This document shows, piece by piece, positions 28,747-48,020 of a stretch of DNA of 64,000 bases. Location: assembly GCA_010093745.1 (NCBI GenBank), contig MU005967.1, forward strand, positions 186,001 through 250,000, given 5' to 3'. The stretch's first letter is position 1. Every line of letters begins with the position of its first letter. Source of the stretch: Piedraia hortae CBS 480.64. Lineage: Eukaryota. The translations under genes and the position numbers were made by a program. Under the pieces are notes generated by a model, which saw only the letters and a program-made list of their open reading frames with translations, was not told the origin of the DNA and did no database searches.

Positions 28747-29910
28747 CTATGCACCCAAACAACCGTCCAATAAACGCCGCAAATCTTCCCTTGATCGTTT
28801 CCCTCCCCCAGGCCAGCTCGTGTCTTCTTGATTACCAGCGTCCATCCTTGTACTTTGACGACGACCGTTGGCTGTCTCTTTGTGACGAGGAGGGGCTTTT
28901 ATCTGGCAAGTTTCAGCCATGAACGGATCCCTTCGCAGATACGGCTCGTTATGGTCCAAAGCCAGCCTGACATCCCGCATATCTATGGGCGAATTGCCTG
29001 GTGGTTCGGCCGAGTTCAGCTTCCGCCTTTTAGCCGGTTTGATGCATCCGTCTGAGCCGCTCCAGGCGTAAGTCATAAGGCTTCCCATCAGCTCCTTGAC
29101 GTACACCTCTAGCCCCTGCTCTACAAGCTCAGCACAAGCCTGGACCGTATTTGGCGACGTGCCCGTCACTCCCTCGCAGTGTGAAATTGGCTCCAGCCTA
29201 GCCTGTACTTCGCTCTGCGACGGAATCTCCTGCGTCTCCTGTGCCAGCGGCTGGGCGAACCTCTTCCTTGCCTCCAGCTCATAAGATACTCTGCTAACAC
29301 CACCCGCACTCATCGGCACATTATGCTCAACCGGCGGCTTCACCGTTAGCGCATTATGATAATCCACGGCCTCATCCCATCCCCTCGTTTCAATCGGAGG
29401 AAGCACATCAATCAAATTCTTGATCCTCCTCCTCTCCCTCGCCGAAAGTCCCATAACCTCCTTCTTCGTTATCTCCTCCCCTCTGTCCCTATTCCCACCC
29501 ACCCCTCCACTCTTCCCCGCATGTCTATCCGTCGTGTCCACAACCCACCCCGCGACCTCCCCATCCGGCTGATCGCGGTACAAATTCGCAAATATACTAA
29601 ACAAAAAAGCATTGTGCAGCCTCGTCGACTTCGCTGGATCAGTACTCTTCTTCTGGCCCTCCTGCCCTGTGCCTAGGATCAGAGGTCCAATCACCCATTG
29701 TAGCTCCGAGTGATTTAGTTTCCCTAACACGAAGTCCTTGATCGCCGTTTTGTATTCCAACCATCCGTCGCCCAGACAGGCGCGGAGTTGGAGCGTTGGT
29801 CCTTCCATGTCGATCCGCGATGTCCCGGACGCGGACGCTTTGCTACCGGGGCGGACAGCGCTCGCGGGCGCGAGGGACGGGCTCGTAGCCCCCGCGTCGG
29901 TGGGAACCAT
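28747..29910 (-). CDS. ADA1: SAGA complex subunit Ada1/Hfi1
   Basis: LGDGWLEYKTAIKDFVLGKLNHSEL, LHNAFLFSI and histone-fold-like CAELVEQGLEVYVKE. Confidence 0.82.
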   Translation of the reverse strand: MVPTDAGATSPSLAPASAVRPGSKASASGTSRIDMEGPTLQLRACLGDGWLEYKTAIKDFVLGKLNHSELQWVIGPLILGTGQEGQKKSTDPAKSTRLHNAFLFSIFANLYRDQPDGEVAGWVVDTTDRHAGKSGGVGGNRDRGEEITKKEVMGLSARERRRIKNLIDVLPPIETRGWDEAVDYHNALTVKPPVEHNVPMSAGGVSRVSYELEARKRFAQPLAQETQEIPSQSEVQARLEPISHCEGVTGTSPNTVQACAELVEQGLEVYVKELMGSLMTYAWSGSDGCIKPAKRRKLNSAEPPGNSPIDMRDVRLALDHNEPYLRRDPFMAETCQIKAPPRHKETANGRRQSTRMDAGNQEDTSWPGGGKRSREDLRRLLDGCLGA

Positions 29911-30897
29911 GACTGTCTACCAATGCGCTCGCTGCGCTCGCGACGGGTGAGGTCAATGTGGGGCCCCGCAAGACCGTTACGCTAGGGTTTAGGTTGTGGG
30001 GAAGCTTGTTTGTGGGTTGGGGTGATGAACGGGTTGGCGGGACTTGCGTTTGTGGGTCCCTGATGAGGGGAACGGAGGTTTTGTTAGCTGATGTGAATAA
30101 ATGTGTGTCTTGGTGATCATTTACTCCATTGGCTATCATGTGTTGAAAGGGTTGCTTTCTTGTTTACGCAAAATACGCTACGGTGATCTACTCAGGTTCT
30201 CCAAGCAATGAACGATGGGTGATCTAGTGATATGAACTAAACGGTAAAGAGTGATCACCAGTCGGTTATGGATTAGGGATCCGGCGAACAGATAGCTAGC
30301 GATTCCCACGACTTGTCCGTAAAAGTTCCTGTCGTTCTAGAGCGCACGAGTGAAACACCAACTCACCTACCTGTGAAGTCTAATTATCCAAACCCAGAGA
30401 GCACACCAAAGGTTACCCACCGAGCTCATGATGCCAACACTCAACAAGGACTTCGACGAAGCATACACGGCATTCGTCTGTAAGCTTTCCAACGTTGGAA
30501 TGGGGACATCAGGAATCCATGAGGATGGGCCACTCGAGAAGGTGCCTCTGGGACTGGCTGTGCGTACTTACCGACGCAGCTGGTCTGGTCTTCTTATCTT
30601 ATAGTGCACTGCCGGGCTGGGCGAGGTGGAGATTTGGCTCGCCATCTGTCTTTTCCCAAATCCAATTGTCTTCGTTCACACGAAAACGTCTCGTGTATTG
30701 GTGTACAATTGGTTTTTCTTCGGATTTTACTTTATTCAACACCCGCCATGTGGTACAGGTGTCGTTCAATTTTTCGTGGGAAACACGTCAATGTCCTGCG
30801 TTGGTGCGTAGAAGAGTAAATAGGACGAGGAGTCAGATTAAGGTAAAGCCATGAGTCGCGCTGTTGCTTAATTGACGCAGGAAATGTGTGCATTTGT

Positions 30898-31035
30898 TCA
30901 TAAACCAACCCTGGATAAGGAAGGGATATCGGTACGCAGGATGCAAGTATCGCCCCGTGTGGCATCAGTACACCACACAGCAGGAGACTCGCTGACGTCT
31001 TCACTGCATATCAATTTTGTCTTCAAAACACACAT
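30898..31035 (-). pseudogene. Degenerate MC-microprotein family member (type C-like)
   Basis: MCVLKTKLICSEDVSESPAVWCTDATRGDTCILRTDIPSLSRVGL*; C-x11-C-x8-C spacing identical to the 34322 copy; TGA falls about where the terminal CxxC begins. Confidence 0.5.
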
Positions 31036-31702
31036 TGGCGGCCATAAGTGAAGGATTGCCTTAAAGTTCGTTGGCAGAAAAGAGCTTGAAAGAGTGCTCG
31101 GTTTGTCCAATCACCCGGCATGAGTACGGTGTGGCATATTCCTGTTATAGGTATGCCCTCCACCTATGTTCATGTTAGCCTCCATGGGTACGGTCTCACT
31201 CCACACAAGCTAGGGGATTAATGGTGACCGATGGATGCCACCTTGGCGTTTTCCAGCGCGTAAATTTGGAGTTTACGCGGCTTCTTTCTACGCAGCTAGC
31301 ACTTGCCTGCGTCGACGGTGCAGGTCCTAAAGGATGCACTGGGTTCTCGTCAGCCAGACCCTTCTTCTAAGATATGGGACTACGCACAAGGAGGATGCAA
31401 ATTCAAATAGGGAGGCTAGTGACTAAACAACCTTGGAAGAGGTTAAAACCTCTTTTGATTGATCTATAGCTATGGTACTTGAGATAGGATGCATGATCTC
31501 GTCCTTCGAGCCTGAACATCCAATTCCCCACTGACATAAGCGAGCTACAAGTGTCACGAGGGAGTTACTCTAACCTCCAAGACCATTCACCCCTATGACG
31601 CGTAGCTCTTGACAGGAGCGGTCCTTTCTGTGTCTTACCTCTTTTGGAGCGACACTTCTTGGCAAGCAACCCTATCTTGACCTTGTTAAAAATTTTCAAC
31701 AA

Positions 31703-31741
31703 ACACAAACCACAAACCACAAACCACAAACCACAAACCAC
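31703..31741. repeat. (CCACAAA)n 7-bp microsatellite, ~5 copies, in the leader of microprotein A1
   Basis: Visible cacaaaccacaaaccacaaac... Confidence 0.9.
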
Positions 31742-31768
31742 ATGCACTGAACAAACCCGCAAGCCAAA

Positions 31769-32029
31769 ATGTGCTACTTCTACCGGCTCTATTGCCCGCG
31801 CTGTAAGCAGCATCTGCAGCAGGATCCCGAACACGAGTATATCCGCTCGAATGAAAGGTATAAGCAGTGCCGCGCTTTCAAGGAACATGGGGACCTGTCT
31901 AACGATCCCGTGTGCGCCTGGAATTTGAAAATCACCAAGCAGGATTGCCAGCTTTGTGCTGGGTGTTGTGCCGAGATAAAGGAGACCGAAACGCTTCGGG
32001 ACGAGGGAGGACATGGCTCTGCACAGTAG
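31769..32029 (+). CDS. Cys-rich MC-microprotein type A, copy A1 (86 aa)
   Basis: MCYFYRLYCPRC...KQC...PVCAWNLKITKQDCQLCAGC; AAAATG start context; clear paralog at 35731-36000. Confidence 0.75.
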   Translation: MCYFYRLYCPRCKQHLQQDPEHEYIRSNERYKQCRAFKEHGDLSNDPVCAWNLKITKQDCQLCAGCCAEIKETETLRDEGGHGSAQ

Positions 32030-32157
32030 AGATGTCATTATGACGAGAGTTGGCTGAGCGACAAGGGATACGAGTATGCATGCGAGTCAATGGGAGATTC
32101 ATGGGACTGGTAGATCGTTTCTTTGGTTCATTACACTGTCAACATCCTATACATGGT

Positions 32158-32268
32158 CTATCTAAAGCCATTGCGCCGGAACGAGGAGAACTTCGAGCCC
32201 GACGTACTCGTCCTGTTAATCAACACCGTACAGTGGTTCGTACTGCTTCTCCTCGCAGTGTGGCATGA
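32158..32268 (-). pseudogene. 3' remnant of MC-microprotein type C
   Basis: RSCHTARRSSTNHCTVLINRTSTSGSKFSSFRRNGFR*; homologous to the 34322 copy with both terminal Cys changed to Phe and the 5' part missing. Confidence 0.75.
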
Positions 32269-32518
32269 CCTCCACGCATGCATGCAAACTACCACAAGCA
32301 CCCGCTCAATCCACCATGATCCCCTCATTCATGGGTACGGCAAAGACATCTCGCAATGTCCTGATAAACCACTACAAGCACACTCTCTTTCCTCCCAGTA
32401 GTCCATGCCTCCACCACTAGTGCCCACCAAACCTTACATTTCCTTAGCTCCCTCCCCTAAGCTAAAACCAGCCTACACAAACCCTTCAAACCCTTCAAGC
32501 CCCTAACGACCAACCAAA

Positions 32519-32714
32519 ATGTGCAAAAATAGAGTATCCCGTTGTCCCGCATGCAGGGACATCATTGATATCGACCGCAAAGGCTGACCTAAACGCCAGA
32601 AGCACCAGTGCAATGAATTTACCCAAAAAAGAACTATCTCCGTCACCCGTGCCACCGTTGTGTGCAAAAACATCCACGCGGCAAGCCAGACCTGTATTGG
32701 GAGTTAATCAATTA
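32519..32714 (+). pseudogene. MC-microprotein type B, disrupted copy B1
   Basis: MCKNRVSRCPACRDIIDIDRKG*PKRQKHQC..., then a frameshift near the A6 run to YLRHPCHRCVQKH...WELIN*; TGA at 32585-32587 sits at a conserved Cys. Confidence 0.75.
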
Positions 32715-33034
32715 GAGTCTGTTTATCAAGATCATAACCGGGAATATCGATGAGGATTTAGATTTACATTCGAGTGGTGATAAGGGCACTGCGCAGGGTA
32801 AGGGTTCGAAGAGGTAGGTAGGGCTGTGTTAGGTTTATGTTCTCCCCGTGAGTACCGACTTTCGTTGCAATGAACCTAACAATTGTTCTCCCTGTATGTG
32901 CCAATTTCTATTACAGAACTTCAATGGCTCAAAGGCCTAATGGTGCTCACGCATTAGGCCTGGTATATGCCTCTATTTCCTTCTTTCTGTTTCGGTTCAA
33001 TTTACTTATACATACCGAAAGCTTGCAGGCCACC

Positions 33035-33226
33035 ATGTGTCTGTATACTACATACCACTGTCCACAATGCGGTAGGATCATTGTAGTTGGTAAGGCGGTG
33101 GTGGTGGAGGTGTGTTCCGTTGCTATTGCCAAGGCGGAGACGGTTGATATTGCAAGGACCATTGTGAAGGAGCAGGAGGCTGAAAGAGTCGAGAGAGAGC
33201 AGGGTCCTCTGCAGTTGACTAGGTAA
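33035..33226 (+). CDS. MC-microprotein type D (63 aa; C-terminal Cys set lost or frameshifted)
   Basis: GCCACCATG context; MCLYTTYHCPQCGRIIVVGKAVVVEVC shares C2/C9/C12 with the family. Confidence 0.5.
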   Translation: MCLYTTYHCPQCGRIIVVGKAVVVEVCSVAIAKAETVDIARTIVKEQEAERVEREQGPLQLTR

Positions 33227-33484
33227 GTGAAGAGCCGTCTACTGCTGCAGTTGAGAAGAACAGGGAGGAGTTGAATCCTACGGGGCCCAACCCTCTCGAG
33301 TGTCCATTGAGAGACTCGCGAGATGCAACGGGGACTCGAAAATGCACGAGGTGCAAGGGGGATAAAACTAAAGGTGAAGACCGGTGTGCGGTTGGAAATG
33401 TTCTCAGGACGTTTGTAGAATAGGATACAGTAGCTACGTGGTTTAGTCTAATCGTTAGTTATGTTGTTTAAATTTATGGTTACT

Positions 33485-34022
33485 CTAGTCATCGCTATCG
33501 TTTGAACTCATATCCGAGCTTGTGGTGGAACTTGTGTCCAAATTAGTATCCGAAATCGAACTCGAATCCGAATCCTTTTCTTTCCTGTGCTTAGTCGTGG
33601 TCTGCTTCTTATGCTTAGTCGTCATGCTTTTCTCGTGCTTGATCATCGTGCCCTTCTTGTACTTGATCACTGTATCCTTCTCGTATTTGGTCACTGTTTC
33701 CTTCTTGTGCTTGGTCGTTGTATCTTTATGCCCAGTCTTTGTACCCTCCTTGTGACCAGTGGCCGTATCCTCCTCGTGCTTGGCCGTCGGCGCCTCCTTG
33801 CCCCTAGACTTTTTTTCTCACAAACGGGCTCTGGTGGACCAGATGCCAGTTTACTATCGGATCACCGACTTCCTCGACACAACTCGTACATGCCCTGCGG
33901 AGGTAATAAGTCTTCTCTATGATATCAGTACACTCGTGGTTCTCAAATTGGGGACAGATTTTGCGCTTGACCGAGAGGATCTCCCTACGGGAGGGTCAGC
34001 GCAAAATCTTTACAGTGCACAT
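33485..34022 (-). pseudogene. MC-microprotein type B, disrupted copy B2 with 8-aa repeat tail
   Basis: MCTVKILR*PSRREILSVKRKICPQFENHECTDIIEKTYYLRRACTSC...NWHLVHQSPF; TGA at 33996-33998; frameshift at the T7 run ~33810 leads into repeats and ...NDSDD*. Confidence 0.75.
33580..33800. repeat. Degenerate 24-bp tandem repeat (~9 units) encoding T-K-H-K/E-K-x-T-x on the minus strand
   Basis: Periodic ...TGCTT(A/G)GTC... every 24 nt; translation TTKHKKET VTKYEKDT VIKYKKGT MIKHEKSM TTKHKKQT. Confidence 0.88.
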
Positions 34023-34321
34023 GTTGATTTATTGCTGTGGACTTGGGCTTTGCTCATCGGAGAAGGTTGGTTTTAGGTGGAAGGAGAGAAGCTGTGTAAA
34101 TAACGCAATCGGTGGCCATTGGAGCTGCTATCACGGACCGGGTGAAGTGAACGTGTGCAGGTGGGCATTGTGAGGCGCCTTTCCGCACCAATGGAGGAGA
34201 AGGGCATGCTCCACTGTGTGAATACGCCGTACCTGCGGAAAGCGCGGAGTATAAAAAGGTCACCCTTCCATGCCTTTCTCCTCCACCGAATACTCTTTAC
34301 ACTTATTGATCAAGCGATACA

Positions 34322-34501
34322 ATGTGCTACTACGACACCCGCACGTGTTTTACAGACGGTTGTAGCAACGTTATCAGCGGACCGACGCTGAAGTCGTGCG
34401 GTCGTGCTCTTAAAAGCAACCACTGTACGGCGCTGATTAACAGGACGATTAAGTCGACCTCGAAATGCGCCCCGTGTAGGCGAAATGGCTTTAGACAATA
34501 A
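34322..34501 (+). CDS. Cys-rich MC-microprotein type C, intact copy (59 aa, below the ORF-track cutoff)
   Basis: MCYYDTRTCFTDGCSNVISGPTLKSCGRALKSNHCTALINRTIKSTSKCAPCRRNGFRQ*; TATAAAA at ~34250; ACAATG start context. Confidence 0.72.
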   Translation: MCYYDTRTCFTDGCSNVISGPTLKSCGRALKSNHCTALINRTIKSTSKCAPCRRNGFRQ

Positions 34502-34924
34502 TTAGGACGTTGAAAGCGTAACAGCTTGGAAAAATCCCACCTTTCTCATGTCATTGACGTTTGCACGTAGATATAGATATAACCCATGCCTGACATTAAC
34601 TCCCACAACAACAATCTCTTCACTCCTTAAAAGCCCTCATGGCACATTGTAGTCAGTTGACACAAGGGCATTTGGGCTTCAACGTGTGGGATAATCCTAG
34701 ATAGAAGCCGAGACTTCCCAGGGTTTTAGAGTTTTCTCAAGAACGGGTTGCGGTCCCATTTTAATTGGAGTGCGTGATCGATCACGTGAACAGACAACAC
34801 AAGAAAAAGATACTCCTATCTAAACCCTAACCTAGTCATCGCTGTTATCACTGCTCGAGCTCGATTCTACTCTCTGTCTGTCCCTAGCCTTATACCTCTC
34901 AAAAGGAGTCAGTGTGATTAACTC

Positions 34925-35107
34925 TCAGTTTATCGCCGGCGTGCCAAATCTATGCTCTTGGACACAGCGGCGACATGCCTCCAGGCGATAAGAAGTCCTC
35001 TCTAAGACCCTGCTACATTGATGCCTCCGATAGTCGGGGCAGTCTCTGAGCTTCCGCTTGAGGATATGCTGGCAACAGCGACAGTGAGTGATACTTTCTA
35101 CGCACAT
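34925..35107 (-). CDS. Cys-rich MC-microprotein type B, copy B3 (60 aa; homologous frame continues past TGA to 34832)
   Basis: MCVESITHCRCCQHILKRKLRDCPDYRRHQCSRVLERTSYRLEACRRC...; all 7 family Cys intact. Confidence 0.7.
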   Translation of the reverse strand: MCVESITHCRCCQHILKRKLRDCPDYRRHQCSRVLERTSYRLEACRRCVQEHRFGTPAIN

Positions 35108-35398
35108 TTTTTCTGATCTTAGAAGGTTTTGGGTTTTCTTGAGGATCGCAAGCTGGTTTTACCTAATCAAGGGAAAGGTGCGTGACTGTACCATTTGGTG
35201 GGTACTGGTTTTTATTAACATTGGTAGGGCTATGGTAGTTCGTGAAGTCATTACAAGATGTATCCCTGGAAAAAAAGAACAGACCCTACTGTAAGGACCC
35301 CGTAACTACAATGCAGGGGGTGCGGTATAGAAGGGGCATCCTCTTCCGCCCTTTCCTCTCCAACAAAACCAATACGCAGATCAATCAATCAAAAAAAA

Positions 35399-35575
35399 AA
35401 GTGTTATTACGACCCCCGCACGCGTATTACCGATGGTTGCAATAATATTATAAGCAGACCAATGCTGAAGCCGTGTGGTTGTGCCCTTGAAGGCAACCGC
35501 TTCACGGTGCTAATTAACAGGACGATCAAGTCGATCTCGAAGTGCTCCTCGTGTAGGCGCAGTGGCTTTAGATAG
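35399..35575 (+). pseudogene. MC-microprotein type C, start-lost copy
   Basis: AAG instead of ATG after an A10 run, then CYYDPRTRITDGCNNIISRPMLKPCGCALEGNRFTVLINRTIKSISKCSSCRRSGFR*; colinear with the 34322 copy, two Cys lost. Confidence 0.75.
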
Positions 35576-35730
35576 ACCGTCCATAGGACGTTAACAGCGT
35601 AACTGACCGAAACAATCTCCCAGTCTCATGAAACTTTCATCGACTAGCCATGACCCATACCTTGTGCCAAACTCCCCCAATCACATCGTTGCCTACAGAA
35701 GTCATACCGCATCCCAATACCCACAAATCG

Positions 35731-36000
35731 TTACTCGCCAGACCCAAACGGCCATTCACCAGAGTAAACCTCATCCTCCTTCTTCTCCTTTATCTCCTCA
35801 AAACACTCGCAACAAATCCTCTTGTCCTGTTTCGTAACTTTAATCGTCCAAGTACACTTTGGTTCGCACAGTGGGTCCACATGTTCGTTGAAGGGACGGC
35901 ATTGCTTCGATCTATCGCTGGCGCGGAGGAGCTCCTTCTCGAGATCCTGTTTAAGATGCTTTTTGCAGCGCGGGCAGAAGAGGCGGTAGAAGTAGCACAT
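35731..36000 (-). CDS. Cys-rich MC-microprotein type A, copy A2 (89 aa)
   Basis: MCYFYRLFCPRCKKHLKQD...KQC...PKCTWTIKVTKQDKRICCEC; ungapped paralog of A1. Confidence 0.75.
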   Translation of the reverse strand: MCYFYRLFCPRCKKHLKQDLEKELLRASDRSKQCRPFNEHVDPLCEPKCTWTIKVTKQDKRICCECFEEIKEKKEDEVYSGEWPFGSGE

Positions 36001-36354
36001 CTTGCGTATGTCCGTGTGTGTATGTATGTGTAAAAATCTCAACAGCCACGCAAGTGTTACCCCAAAAAAGGCAAGTCACACAACGGACTGATTCTCCCAG
36101 GGCGGGCCGTGCATGCCAAGCGCCCCACTGATCAGCCCACACGATGACATTTCTACCGCTCTGGCCATGGCAGTTACGTTATTGTCCTAACCACCACCTC
36201 ATCATTCCATCAGATCCCAACGGGAAACCATCCCCGTCAAATGACAACAAGTAATATCCCAACATACTCGCCCGAGTCATATAAACCCACCCAATAAGCT
36301 TTTCCTTAGGGTTACCACCTCCAAAATTAGGATTCAAACCCATTCCATCCAACA

Positions 36355-37222
36355 ATGACGAACCCTTACTCAGCTCTGATACGTTCCTGCAACGACTCCC
36401 CAGTTCGTCCCTCTCCCCTTTACATCCAACCCAGGACCAACCAAGCGCTAGACTTCCCTAATCGCAACCTATTCAACCCACCGCACCAACCGCAACGCCT
36501 TCCAAGCAGAGCGACTCCTCTCCCCCTCCTTCTCCAGCTTCACCCTCGACCCCATCCTCGCGGGTCGGGAGCCGGATAGGAGACACTGTCTCGTCTTCTG
36601 GGCGCGGCCGTCCGATGAAGTCAGAGACCTCGTCGGGGAAGTCCAAACACGCCTCACTTCCGTCGCGCCAAGACTATGGGTTCCCGGGAGGGAGGCTCTG
36701 CATTTGACTGTTCTTGAGATGACGCATTCGAAGACGGAAGAGGAGATTGAGGAGAGGGTTGTGAAGATGAGGGATGGCGCGAAAGAAGTGGTGAGGTTCC
36801 CGTGCGAGAATAAGACGGGGTTGGTTAAGCCAATGCTGTGTTTTGATGCGCAGGCGCTTGCGCTGTCGTTTTTGCCGGAGGAGGATGGGGGAAGGGGATA
36901 CACTTATCATCATTTGAGGAGGGATGTGTACGATCTTGCGGTGAAGACGGGGGTGGAGGTCGAGAGTAGATATGTTGTTCCGTCGGCGCATGTTACGCTG
37001 GGAAGGTTTGTGGATGAGGCGGATTTTGAGACGGAGGGGAAACTGGATGGGGGGAAGGTGGGGTGTTTCGTGGAGGAGATCGAGAGGGTTAATGAATGGT
37101 TGAAAAGGGAGTTTTGGGAGGGAAGGAATGCGATGAGGTGGGTGGTTGGTGATGATGGGCCGATGGAGCTTAGGAGAGGTACGGTTTGGTATGGTGGTGG
37201 GGAAACGGTCTCGTTGGACTGA
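36355..37222 (+). CDS. 2H phosphoesterase (LigT / cyclic phosphodiesterase-like), intron 36403-36451
   Basis: Two HxT motifs (LHLTV, AHVTL); CLVFWARP; splice restores the frame. Confidence 0.8.
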
Positions 37223-38060: not shown

Positions 38061-38664
38061 TGCAGTCAATAATAGGGTATGTTCTGTGGAAGAGGTGAAG
38101 TGAAATGACGTCAGCTTTGACCTTTTTGGAGCTGTCATGTCCCAATTAGGAATAGTCCTGGCGGAAGTCCCGTCTTGGCGAATGAACTCGCATGATTCGT
38201 TTGTGAAGGGTTCGAGTGAATCTAATTAGTAGGCTCACTGGCATTTCAGATACAGATAGGATAAGGATAAACTGTTTTGGAATGCTCCTCGAAAAATCAT
38301 CAACAGCCCAGCAGATGAGAACATGTCAGACGCTTGCCTTAGGTAGATAGAACACCGGACTCTCCAGGGGTTTTACCCCATGGGGGATGTTTGCCCTGGA
38401 GCGTAGTTACGCCAAAAGACGTTGTCACGGCGAATGTGGTTCGGGACGGGAAGAGAGTCTAGAGCAGTCTTGCGGTTGCGGGCCTTCTCTTGACCTCAGA
38501 TCAATTCCATAGTGAGGTATCACACACACTGTCTACTGCGTCACCATTCACCATTCACCGATATCGAATTGATGTGAGTAGATCCCTCCCTCCTTCCGAT
38601 AGAACAGAAAACTTTGCACAACTGAACTGTGAATTTTCATGTTGTATAAGCTTCTCAACACTAG

Positions 38665-45976: not shown

Positions 45977-47370
45977 ATGGTACGTACTGACCCACGACTC
46001 GCTACAATAATTTTAATGGAGTGTAGAAAATCAAGGCGCTTTCCCGATCCACCAGCAGAGTGCTAGAACCCGGCAGCGATGTGGCTCGGCTGCCGCGAAA
46101 CCTCAACCCGGCCCTCCACCCGTTTGAACGAGCCCGCGAATACACTCGCGCTTTGAATGCCACGAAGCTAGATCGCATGTTTGCTGCGCCTTTTATCGCT
46201 CAGCTAGGGAGAGGTCACGTGGACGGTGTATATACGCTTGCCAAAGACCCCAATTCCCTTGAACGATTCGCCAGTGGAAGCGGCGACGGTGTTGTCAAAG
46301 TCTGGGAACTCTCCTCCCGTGAAGAGACTTGGCAAACTCGTGCACACGAGAACATTGTCAAGGGCATCTGTTGGACCAGCGACAAGAAGCTACTATCTTG
46401 TAGTGCTGATCGGGCGGTGAAGCTGTATGATCCATATAACTCATCGTCCGATTGCGCCCCCTGTGCCACCTGGCTGGGCTCAAATGCCTATACAAGTATA
46501 ACTCATCACCGAACCGAGCCAGCCTTTGCTGTTTCTTCGGCCTCGGGTATCCAGATCTACGACGAATCGCGACCCTCTTCGGTTCCAAAGCAATCTTTGG
46601 CTTGGCCAACGAGCGTCGACACTGTCAATGTCGCAGCTTTCAACCAGTCCGAGACGTCTATTCTAGCTTCATGCGCAACGGATCGTTCGCTTGTGCTCTA
46701 CGATCTACGCACTGATTCTCCTCTCCACCGCTCAATCCTCACCCTCTCCTCCAACGCCATCTCGTGGAATCCCATGGAACCCTTCAACCTGGCACTTGCC
46801 AACGAAGATCACAACATCTACTTATTTGACATGCGGAACCTTTCTCGTGCGCTCAACGTCCTCAAGGATCACGTATCAGCCGTCATGGACGTTGAGTTTT
46901 CTCCCACCGGCACCGAGCTTGTGTCGGCCTCTTACGATCGCAGTGTCCGTCTCTGGAACCGGCAAGAAGGACACAGCCGCGATATCTACCATACAAAGCG
47001 TATGCAGCGCGTTTTCGCCTGCCGCTGGACCCCTGATGCGCGCTATATCCTTTCTGGTTCAGACGACGGCAATGTCCGGCTTTGGAGAGCGCAGGCCTCA
47101 CAGCGGTCAGGTATCCAGACGTCCCGACAACGGCAGAAGCTGGAGCTAGACGCTGCATTGCGTGAGCGATATAAGCATATGCCAGAGATTCGCCGCATCA
47201 ACCGGCACAGACATGTTCCTAAACAGGTCAAGAAGGCGGGTGAGACCAAGAACGAGGAAATACGCGCTATCAAACGGAGACAGGAGAATGTGCGGAAACA
47301 TTCTAAAAAGGAGGGTCGCCCTGGCAGGAAGAGTGAGCGTGAGAAGATGGTGCTTACGACTGAGCAATGA
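45977..47370 (+). CDS. SOF1: U3 snoRNP WD40 protein Sof1/DCAF13; ATG-only first exon, intron 45980-46026
   Basis: MKIKALSR, HPFERAREYTRALNATKL, YHTKRMQ and SGSDDGNVRLW. Confidence 0.96.
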
Positions 47371-47600: not shown

Positions 47601-48020
47601 TCAACCTAGCGCACACTCTCCCCCACCTGATCTCACCGCTCCCCCCTTCCTCTCCCAGTACCTCTCCCATCCCTTACAATTCGCCTCCCCATTCGAATTC
47701 TCAGCATCCCTCTTTACCGTACTTTCATCGTCTTCAGCATCCCAAACCACCCCAGAATCTTCCACCTCCACGCCATTCACCTCCACGGCCCTGTCTGTCT
47801 CCCCTCCCAAGACCTCCTCTCCACCCCCATGCCGCTCACAAAACCCCTCCCCTTTCCTCCTAATCCTCAACGTCCACGCACAAACCGGCGGGTTGGATTT
47901 ATCAGCACATCTCTTAAAAGAAGAGCAGTGTCTCCTCTCCTCCGATGCACGAGCATAAATCTCCTCCGTCGCAACGCGACAGCCTATCTTACAACACACG
48001 GAAAGGATGAGGATGCACAT
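47601..48020 (-). CDS. Dispersed MC-microprotein type A (A3) with acidic tail
   Basis: MCILILSVCCKIGC...ARASEERRHCSSF...SNPPVCAWTLRIRRKGEGFCERH aligns to A1/A2. Confidence 0.7.
   Translation of the reverse strand: MCILILSVCCKIGCRVATEEIYARASEERRHCSSFKRCADKSNPPVCAWTLRIRRKGEGFCERHGGGEEVLGGETDRAVEVNGVEVEDSGVVWDAEDDESTVKRDAENSNGEANCKGWERYWERKGGAVRSGGGECALG

Follow-up and report, generated by a model that had tools for sequence, protein, structure and literature searches.

Unannotated micro-genes for small Cys-rich, putatively zinc-binding proteins form a partly decayed cluster in a filamentous ascomycete

We analysed a window of 64,000 nucleotides (nt) from Piedraia hortae CBS 480.64 (contig MU005967.1), a genome that resembles that of a filamentous ascomycete; the window denotes this whole stretch, and all positions refer to it. 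Between two of its genes lies an island of approximately 6.5 kb, with a GC content of 48% compared to 53-54% in the flanks, that holds a series of tiny open reading frames (ORFs) starting with Met-Cys and sharing a skeleton of seven Cys residues. These ORFs are best explained as a family of unannotated intronless genes with Cys-rich, mostly leaderless products of 59-139 amino acids (aa). A preceding sequence-only reading of this DNA had listed such ORFs and relics at ten loci, and all ten could be located again. In a six-frame translation of the window the motif M-C-x6-C-x2..4-C occurs seven times, whereas 200 Markov-1 shuffles of the window average 0.18 occurrences and never exceed 2, confirming that the island is real. 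Six of the seven occurrences lie inside the island (31769+, 32519+, 33035+, 34322+, 35107- and 36000-), and the seventh belongs to a longer ORF, A3, situated 11.6 kb beyond it. Furthermore, a family hidden Markov model (HMM) was searched against all 1895 stop-to-stop ORFs of at least 20 aa in the window. It recovered its seven training members at E <= 5e-17 and additionally matched B3 (E 0.0089), the head of relic E (0.083) and the head of D (0.097), with nothing further below E 0.8. The C-terminal part of the skeleton, C-x13-C-x2-C, occurs nine times in these 1895 ORFs, six of them within the island. The loci are the following, where GC3 is the GC content at third codon positions and pI the isoelectric point:

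30898..31035, reverse strand: G, doubtful relic with a Met-Cys start, x7 in place of x6 and four Cys only; no HMM score below E 10
31769..32029, forward strand: A1, intact, 86 aa, full skeleton, 9 Cys, GC3 0.65
32158..32268, reverse strand: B3, 3' remnant of B type, both terminal Cys changed to Phe
32519..32712, forward strand: E, decayed C-type copy with an in-frame TGA at 32585-32587 and, close to an A6 run, a frameshift beyond which the tail has C-x2-C
33035..33420, forward strand: D, decayed; M-C-x6-C-x2-C and, about 60 codons further on, C-x13-C-x2-C lie in different frames
33485..33817, reverse strand: probable former tail of F, entered where an A7 run is read with a +1 shift; 8-residue repeats rich in Lys, Thr and His that give way to a Ser/Asp-rich end
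33807..34022, reverse strand: F, decayed C-type copy with TGA at 33996-33998, exactly at Cys9; remainder in frame, including C-x13-C-x2-C
34322..34501, forward strand: B1, intact, 59 aa, 7 Cys, first knuckle C-x4-C, pI 9.5
34925..35107, reverse strand: C, intact, 60 aa, 8 Cys, pI 9.3
35399..35575, forward strand: B2, recently decayed B copy; ATG gone by a 1-nt deletion, two skeleton Cys changed to Arg and Phe, otherwise open
35460..36159, no strand: RNA contig of 700 nt (depth 6.4, 0 mismatches) that includes the whole of A2, plus 159 nt on its upstream and 271 nt on its downstream side
35731..36000, reverse strand: A2, intact, 89 aa, 9 Cys, wholly under the RNA contig
47601..48020, reverse strand: A3, 139 aa, long acidic tail; Cys at the His ligand column and C-x2-H for the last C-x2-C

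The "about 9 ORFs and relics" of the sequence-only reading exist and resolve into four intact copies (A1, A2, B1 and C), five decayed ones (B2, B3, D, E and F) and one doubtful relic (G) in the island; A3 had been overlooked. Their order and orientation, G< >A1 B3< >E >D F< >B1 C< >B2 A2<, alternate such that the island forms a chain of convergent pairs (A1/B3, D/F, B1/C and B2/A2). In each of the four intact island copies no in-frame ATG intervenes between the upstream stop and the Met-Cys ATG, and the start contexts carry A at position -3 in seven of nine cases and G in one more. All seven skeleton Cys and one His are retained in all four. The constancy of the x6 and x13 spacings claimed earlier is borne out for C-x13-C-x2-C, present in all four intact copies and, if the lesions are ignored, in D, E and F; the exception to x6 is G, with its x7 and its doubtful membership.

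Comparison of paralogs provided evidence that the copies are coding. A1 and A2 were compared over 72 ungapped codons, where the Met-Cys frame is open in both and yields a ratio of nonsynonymous to synonymous substitution (dN/dS, omega) of 0.16, not near 1, with proportions of nonsynonymous (pN) and synonymous (pS) differences of 0.23 and 0.67; the differences at codon positions 1, 2 and 3 number 17, 17 and 33. Antisense phase 0, likewise open in both, gives an omega of 1.28, antisense phase 1, closed by three and two stops, gives 0.26, and the other three frames, all closed, give about 1.3. For B1 and B2 the Met-Cys frame has an omega of 0.25, the lowest of the six, the remaining five ranging from 0.37 to 1.29; this frame is open, except that the compared segment extends beyond B2's own stop. 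Both pairs, A1/A2 and B1/B2, have thus been under purifying selection in the Met-Cys frame. The pair C/F has an omega of 0.65 in this frame, as expected if F is drifting, and pS between paralogs ranges from 0.41 to 0.74. Antisense ORFs run across A1 (31565-32038, reverse strand, 157 aa) and A2 (35650-36033, forward strand, 127 aa); the omega of about 1.28 in the antisense frame indicates that they are by-products of sense codon usage and not genes. The GC3 of the four intact island ORFs, 0.60-0.65, lies within the 0.58-0.68 found in four neighbouring genes, in an island whose overall GC is 0.48.

Transcription data were taken from one small public run that shares words with the island. It contains GT..AG joints of 45-48 nt in neighbouring genes and a loose end of poly-T, and its depth varies between 6 and 17,000; the spliced joints indicate that the run holds RNA, and the listed pieces match the window without mismatches. 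At least two loci lie under RNA contigs, namely A2 and, outside the island, A3, the latter within a contig at 46026-48191 (depth 162, 0 mismatches). On the strength of purifying selection in the Met-Cys frame only, gene-like GC3 and the RNA contigs over A2 and A3, the copies appear to be genuine small protein-coding genes, their products being predicted. The opposing possibility is that no protein is made from them, the ORFs being remnants of an extinct family or having arisen by chance in intergenic DNA subject to pervasive transcription. More than half of the island copies are indeed visibly broken, the databases searched hold neither annotation nor homologue, and the RNA depth over A2 is 6.4 compared to about 100-830 in neighbouring genes. 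Such an origin would, however, leave unexplained the frame-specific purifying selection, the gene-like GC3, the conserved start context and the eight potential ligands kept in every intact copy, and we regard it as distinctly unlikely.

Subfamilies A, B and C are very divergent, as the sequence-only reading had noted, but its view that nearly nothing is shared apart from the skeleton does not hold, since similarity beyond the Cys residues is detectable by BLASTP and hhalign. BLASTP connects A1 to A3 (E 1e-11, 37% identity over 63 residues), C to F (E 2e-11), C to the shifted tail of relic E (E 8e-6) and A2 to F (E 1e-3), and a profile of C and F aligns with B in hhalign in the right register (E 4.5e-3, 31 columns); BLASTP found no resemblance between C and the tail of D. 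These weak pairwise matches in the right register argue that the three subfamilies form one family.

Repeats at the DNA level confirm the paralogy of the copies independently. They link A1 with A2 (inverted, 131 nt, 76% identity), B1 with B2 (direct, 175 nt, 80%), B3 with B2 (117 nt, 79%) and B3 with B1 (78 nt, 82%). Once reverse-complemented, the right unit (B2 and reversed A2) aligns with the whole of the left unit (A1 and reversed B3) at a mean column identity of 77%, indicating that the island is now bracketed by the two products of an inverted duplication of a convergent A/B pair. Approximately 45-100 nt 3' of the stop can also be aligned in all three B copies at 71% or more (34502-34540, 35576-35617 and 32110-32157), so that the duplications carried untranslated flanks; the B 3' flank of the A2/B2 unit falls within the RNA contig covering A2. 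The cluster has grown by DNA-level duplication, and about half of its copies have since decayed. Ligand positions were lost in the process, two Cys and the His in B2, two Cys in B3, and Cys9 (to a stop) and Cys12 (to Arg) in F, and relic E is interrupted by TGA after 22 codons. Since an open frame of repeats is reached via the +1 shift in the A7 run, F was once longer, and 33485-33817 on the reverse strand is probably its lost tail, an open frame of 110 codons with a 24-nt tandem repeat at 33630-33724.

Two ways of rescuing the broken copies were considered and rejected. An intron joining the halves of D would have to use the sole GTAAGT donor, which leads either to a 36-nt intron, compared to the 45-48 nt seen in this genome, or to an out-of-frame join. 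As to A-to-I editing, the in-frame stops that it would have to remove from E and F are both TGA, in which A is preceded by G, a disfavoured context for this type of editing.

Intact copies side by side with decayed ones fit birth and death as proposed earlier; the qualifier "rapid" is at odds with the pS of 0.41-0.74 and with purifying selection. The sequence-only reading had gone on to suggest a locus of conflict, that is, toxin and antidote, allorecognition or meiotic drive, perhaps acting through the convergent pairs, with the mixture of live and dead genes reflecting an arms race. Four intact and five to six decayed copies within 5 kb, the chain of convergent pairs and the lack of homologues in the protein databases searched would all suit such a locus, and small proteins acting as fungal spore killers exist (SKC1, rfk-1). 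Against this, the intact pairs are under purifying and not diversifying selection, the paralogs are old, and in both A/B units A is alive and B is dead, which argues against an obligate pair. We therefore do not maintain the suggestion, which seems very unlikely. Little credence is likewise given to a wider scheme in which an undescribed two-zinc fold, with its first ligand right after the initiator Met, is specified by micro-genes, amplified as convergent pairs and turned over by birth and death in an intragenomic or inter-strain conflict, for example as DNA-binding antagonists of mobile elements or as killer and protector pairs. Small gene size may let duplicates escape repeat-induced point mutation (RIP); the RIP indices of the island (TpA/ApT 0.88, (CpA+TpG)/(ApC+GpT) 1.10) are borderline and non-diagnostic.

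On the molecular level, the predicted proteins can be viewed as candidate metal-binding modules. The His lies 1-8 residues before the fifth Cys and is retained in A1, A2, B1, C, E and F; together with the seven Cys it makes eight potential ligands, enough for two tetrahedral Zn sites. All four intact island copies have two knuckles, C9-x2-C12 (x4 in B1) and the terminal C-x2-C. In A3, the His position is taken by Cys and the final knuckle reads C-x2-H, exchanges that fit metal ligands and not disulfides. Between the ligands, conservation extends to aromatic and charged residues, and Tyr, Phe and Trp are kept in the module. Zn binding, which the sequence-only reading had also put forward, is thus a reasonable inference from the two C-x2-C knuckles, the eight conserved Cys/His and the A3 swaps.

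The proteins are hydrophilic, with a grand average of hydropathy (GRAVY) of -0.47 to -0.96. By this crude hydropathy test the first 25 residues, which include the ligands C2 and C9, have a negative GRAVY in four of five intact copies, so that the earlier statement that no member has a signal peptide stands for these four; A3 is the exception, its N-terminus being hydrophobic (GRAVY +1.13 over 25 residues). A1 and A2 are near neutral (pI 6.4 and 7.5) with Glu/Asp-rich C-terminal tails, and A3 has 26 Asp and Glu compared to 21 Lys and Arg, most of its acidic residues being in the long tail. Small, Cys-rich, fast-diverging and clustered proteins, one of them with a hydrophobic start, might alternatively be secreted disulfide-rich peptides of the effector, toxin or defensin kind, exported without a classical leader. 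We consider this highly unlikely, because the N-terminus is hydrophilic in four of five intact copies and part of the conserved module (Cys2 and Cys9), because the number of skeleton Cys is odd, and because the Cys/His swaps of A3 fit metal ligands.

AlphaFold2 (AF2) was run with a seven-row alignment. Its best model of C, which is of low confidence, has a hairpin (2-9/15-20) at the first knuckle, a strand at 34-41 and a helix that begins at the final C-x2-C, a secondary structure that would suit a treble-clef or ribbon-like knuckle-plus-helix Zn site. A folded module that starts at residue 2, as the strand 2-9 of this low-confidence model suggests, would be a simpler reading of Cys2 than the N-degron or redox-sensing role that the sequence-only reading had suggested, and the analysis lends no support to an N-degron. 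The initiator Met is removed before Cys, and an N-terminal Cys is not destabilising in budding yeast.

Taken together, we think it probable that the island encodes a lineage-restricted family of small intracellular proteins built around a putative two-zinc, eight-ligand module from residue 2, expanded by local DNA duplication and pruned by decay, whose module would most likely bind nucleic acid or a partner protein. The eight candidate ligands are C2, C9, C12, C34, H40, C49, C63 and C66 in A2 numbering, and the module would bind two Zn(II) ions. Site one would probably be formed by the two knuckles C9/C12 and C63/C66 in zinc-ribbon or treble-clef fashion, and site two probably by C2, C34, H40 and C49, with Cys2 following the start codon because the fold would begin there. 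In terms of function, we would envisage that Zn stabilises the module for contacts with nucleic acid or with a partner protein, and that the attached tail varies; the module is predicted to be basic in B1 and C, and the tail to be acidic in A3, mildly acidic in A1 and A2, and rich in repeats in the presumed ancestor of F.

Several observations weigh against this interpretation. The RNA contigs carry no strand, the contig over A3 also spans a convergent WD40 gene (46177-47370), and in the one small run 31453-35358, with A1, B1 and C, has no RNA contig, a blank that we treat as uninformative. In hhalign, A aligns with C/F in the wrong register (E 0.033) and with B over 15 columns at E 0.15, so that A is placed in the family by one weak BLASTP match, that of A2 to F, together with the shared skeleton and co-location. 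The structural predictions are poor, with a mean predicted local distance difference test (pLDDT) of 55 for A2 and of 66 for the best model of C, its other four reaching 40-51; none of 33 Foldseek rows had E <= 0.001, and in a wide VIA-align search the best Z was only 2.8. Relatives were also lacking. A HMMER search with an A1+A2 profile retrieved none of 1,835,955,588 proteins at E <= 0.001, a word-index search with A2 found no relative, one with A3 gave 27 candidates but none at E <= 0.01, and one with the seven-member alignment gave 482 candidates but none at E <= 10.

Other searches gave a similar picture. Zn(Cys)4 domains of Fur/Zur/PerR were among the top Foldseek rows, at a noise-level E of 2-9. 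When six members were compared with Pfam at E <= 10, sub-threshold zinc-ribbon and domain of unknown function (DUF) noise was all that appeared (best E 0.021), and the 83 stop-to-stop ORFs of at least 45 aa in the six frames of 30.0-36.5 kb gave no Pfam match at E <= 0.01; the island thus holds no transposon fragments (transposase, integrase or reverse transcriptase), a possibility that the sequence-only reading had proposed to check. Its remark that no named family can be assigned agrees with the Pfam, profile and word-index searches, all without a relative. The literature searched, a survey short of full texts, contained no description of such a Cys-rich family. One metagenome match, L001, the sole tblastn match among 74 pattern matches (residues 1-20, 55%), was rejected as spurious, its contig having 32% GC and the match lying antisense inside a 1304-aa ORF.

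On its left the island adjoins 28747-29916 (reverse strand), which encodes a SAGA-Tad1/ADA1 protein (Pfam E 4.9e-40), as the sequence-only reading had named it. The right neighbour, 36452-37222 (forward strand), has no Pfam match at E <= 0.01; two H-x-T-x motifs can be seen in it by eye, as the label of 2H phosphoesterase implies. Between the ADA1-like gene and relic G, an RNA contig of 776 nt (30104-30879, depth 8) contains no recognisable gene and may be a long untranslated region (UTR) or a non-coding transcript; a scan of 29900-36500 against Rfam gave no matches at E <= 0.1. C/A-rich microsatellites lie immediately 5' of the start codons of A1 (31699-31742, (ACAAACC) x 6.4) and relic E (32478-32502, (CAAACCCTT) x 2.8). 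At position 38527, 79 of about 130 depth units of the RNA run are without one base of the window, possibly reflecting an assembly indel or a polymorphism, in intergenic or UTR sequence beside a Zn2Cys6-like gene.

Genes this small are missed by gene callers, and stretches of this type are dismissed as intergenic. Judged from sequence evidence alone, at least four or five unannotated micro-genes appear to be kept by selection here, in a family without a Pfam model, for which 1.84 billion protein representatives yielded no detectable relative; its description would add a new Cys/His module to the Zn-binding small proteins. The family also offers a concrete test case for the expansion and decay of micro-gene families in fungi. 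A conflict locus or N-terminal Cys sensing, if true, would matter more, although neither is supported by the present analysis.

Among the structures of the Protein Data Bank (PDB), the best match of the family profile is to residues 49-114 of the Hermes transposase (E 0.008, 19.8 bits), an attractive if weak lead towards a DNA-binding role. The profile alignment places the family C9, C12, His and following Cys on Hermes C51, C54, H71 and C73, which according to the Hermes paper coordinate the Zn of a CCHC BED finger (PMC10368747); the spacing of these ligands fits C and F and is eight residues longer in A1 and A2. Hermes, a hAT transposase (PDB 8EDG), has in this finger C-x2-C, about 16-17 residues and H-x-C, and its four Zn ligands align with four conserved positions of the family; aromatics before the first knuckle and a basic character are also common to both. 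One could accordingly imagine that the N-terminal two thirds of the proteins are a CCHC BED-like finger from, or related to, hAT transposases, making the products small DNA binders, for instance competitors or repressors, for which the basic B1 and C and the position of the aromatics would be suitable. This seems unlikely to us. The profile match is itself weak, single-sequence searches did not recover Hermes, and zf-BED (PF02892) matches none of six members even at E <= 10 and none of 85 ORFs at E <= 0.01. The next PDB matches are unrelated Zn-binding or Cys-rich proteins at E 0.04-1.4, the pattern expected of composition-driven matches, and no transposase fragment is present among the 83 island ORFs. 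In addition, a BED finger leaves C2, C34 and the terminal C-x2-C unexplained: the family differs from Hermes by these four further ligands and by starting at residue 2, and its module stands alone, whereas the Hermes finger heads a transposase.

Other small proteins resemble the family that we favour as a two-zinc module to varying degrees. In the ESM Atlas, the nearest clusters of A2 and C are hypothetical proteins of Ascomycota of 65-90 aa without a Pfam family, a likeness in language-model features only, with scores of 0.92, 0.91 and 0.90 for A2 (194, 190 and 180 of 256 features) and 0.88, 0.88 and 0.86 for C; recognition values of 1970 and 2214 are too low for a high score to count as strong evidence. 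This suggests that look-alike small proteins are annotated in other fungi. With the CHHC finger of U11-48K and GTSF1, whose signature is C-P-x4-H followed by H-x3-C, C and F share C-P-x4-H but not the second His, no Pfam match was obtained, and the GTSF1 match in the PDB is at noise level (E 3.5). Fungal Cu-metallothioneins are likewise small and leaderless with seven cysteines, that of Neurospora reportedly being 26 aa long with 7 Cys. Metallothioneins are very rich in Cys, clustered as C-x-C, C-C or C-x2-C, and poor in aromatics. It is conceivable that the island proteins serve as a metal or redox buffer, as metallothionein-like proteins or thiol-based sensors instead of structural Zn modules, considering their many Cys, their small size without a leader and the extra non-skeleton Cys in A1, A2 and C. 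The Cys content of only 7-13% (9/86, 9/89, 10/139, 7/59 and 8/60), the long fixed spacings x6 and x13, the conserved aromatic and charged residues and the lack of the C-x-C and C-C clusters of fungal metallothioneins make this improbable. Zinc-ribbon and treble-clef mini-proteins such as RPC10 and uS14, found as weak PDB matches (E 0.04-1.4) and without a structural match, differ from the family in its second four-ligand set and its fixed x6 and x13 spacings. They are like it in their small size, in two distant C-x2-C knuckles and, as far as the low-confidence model of C can tell, in a predicted hairpin and a helix starting at the second knuckle.

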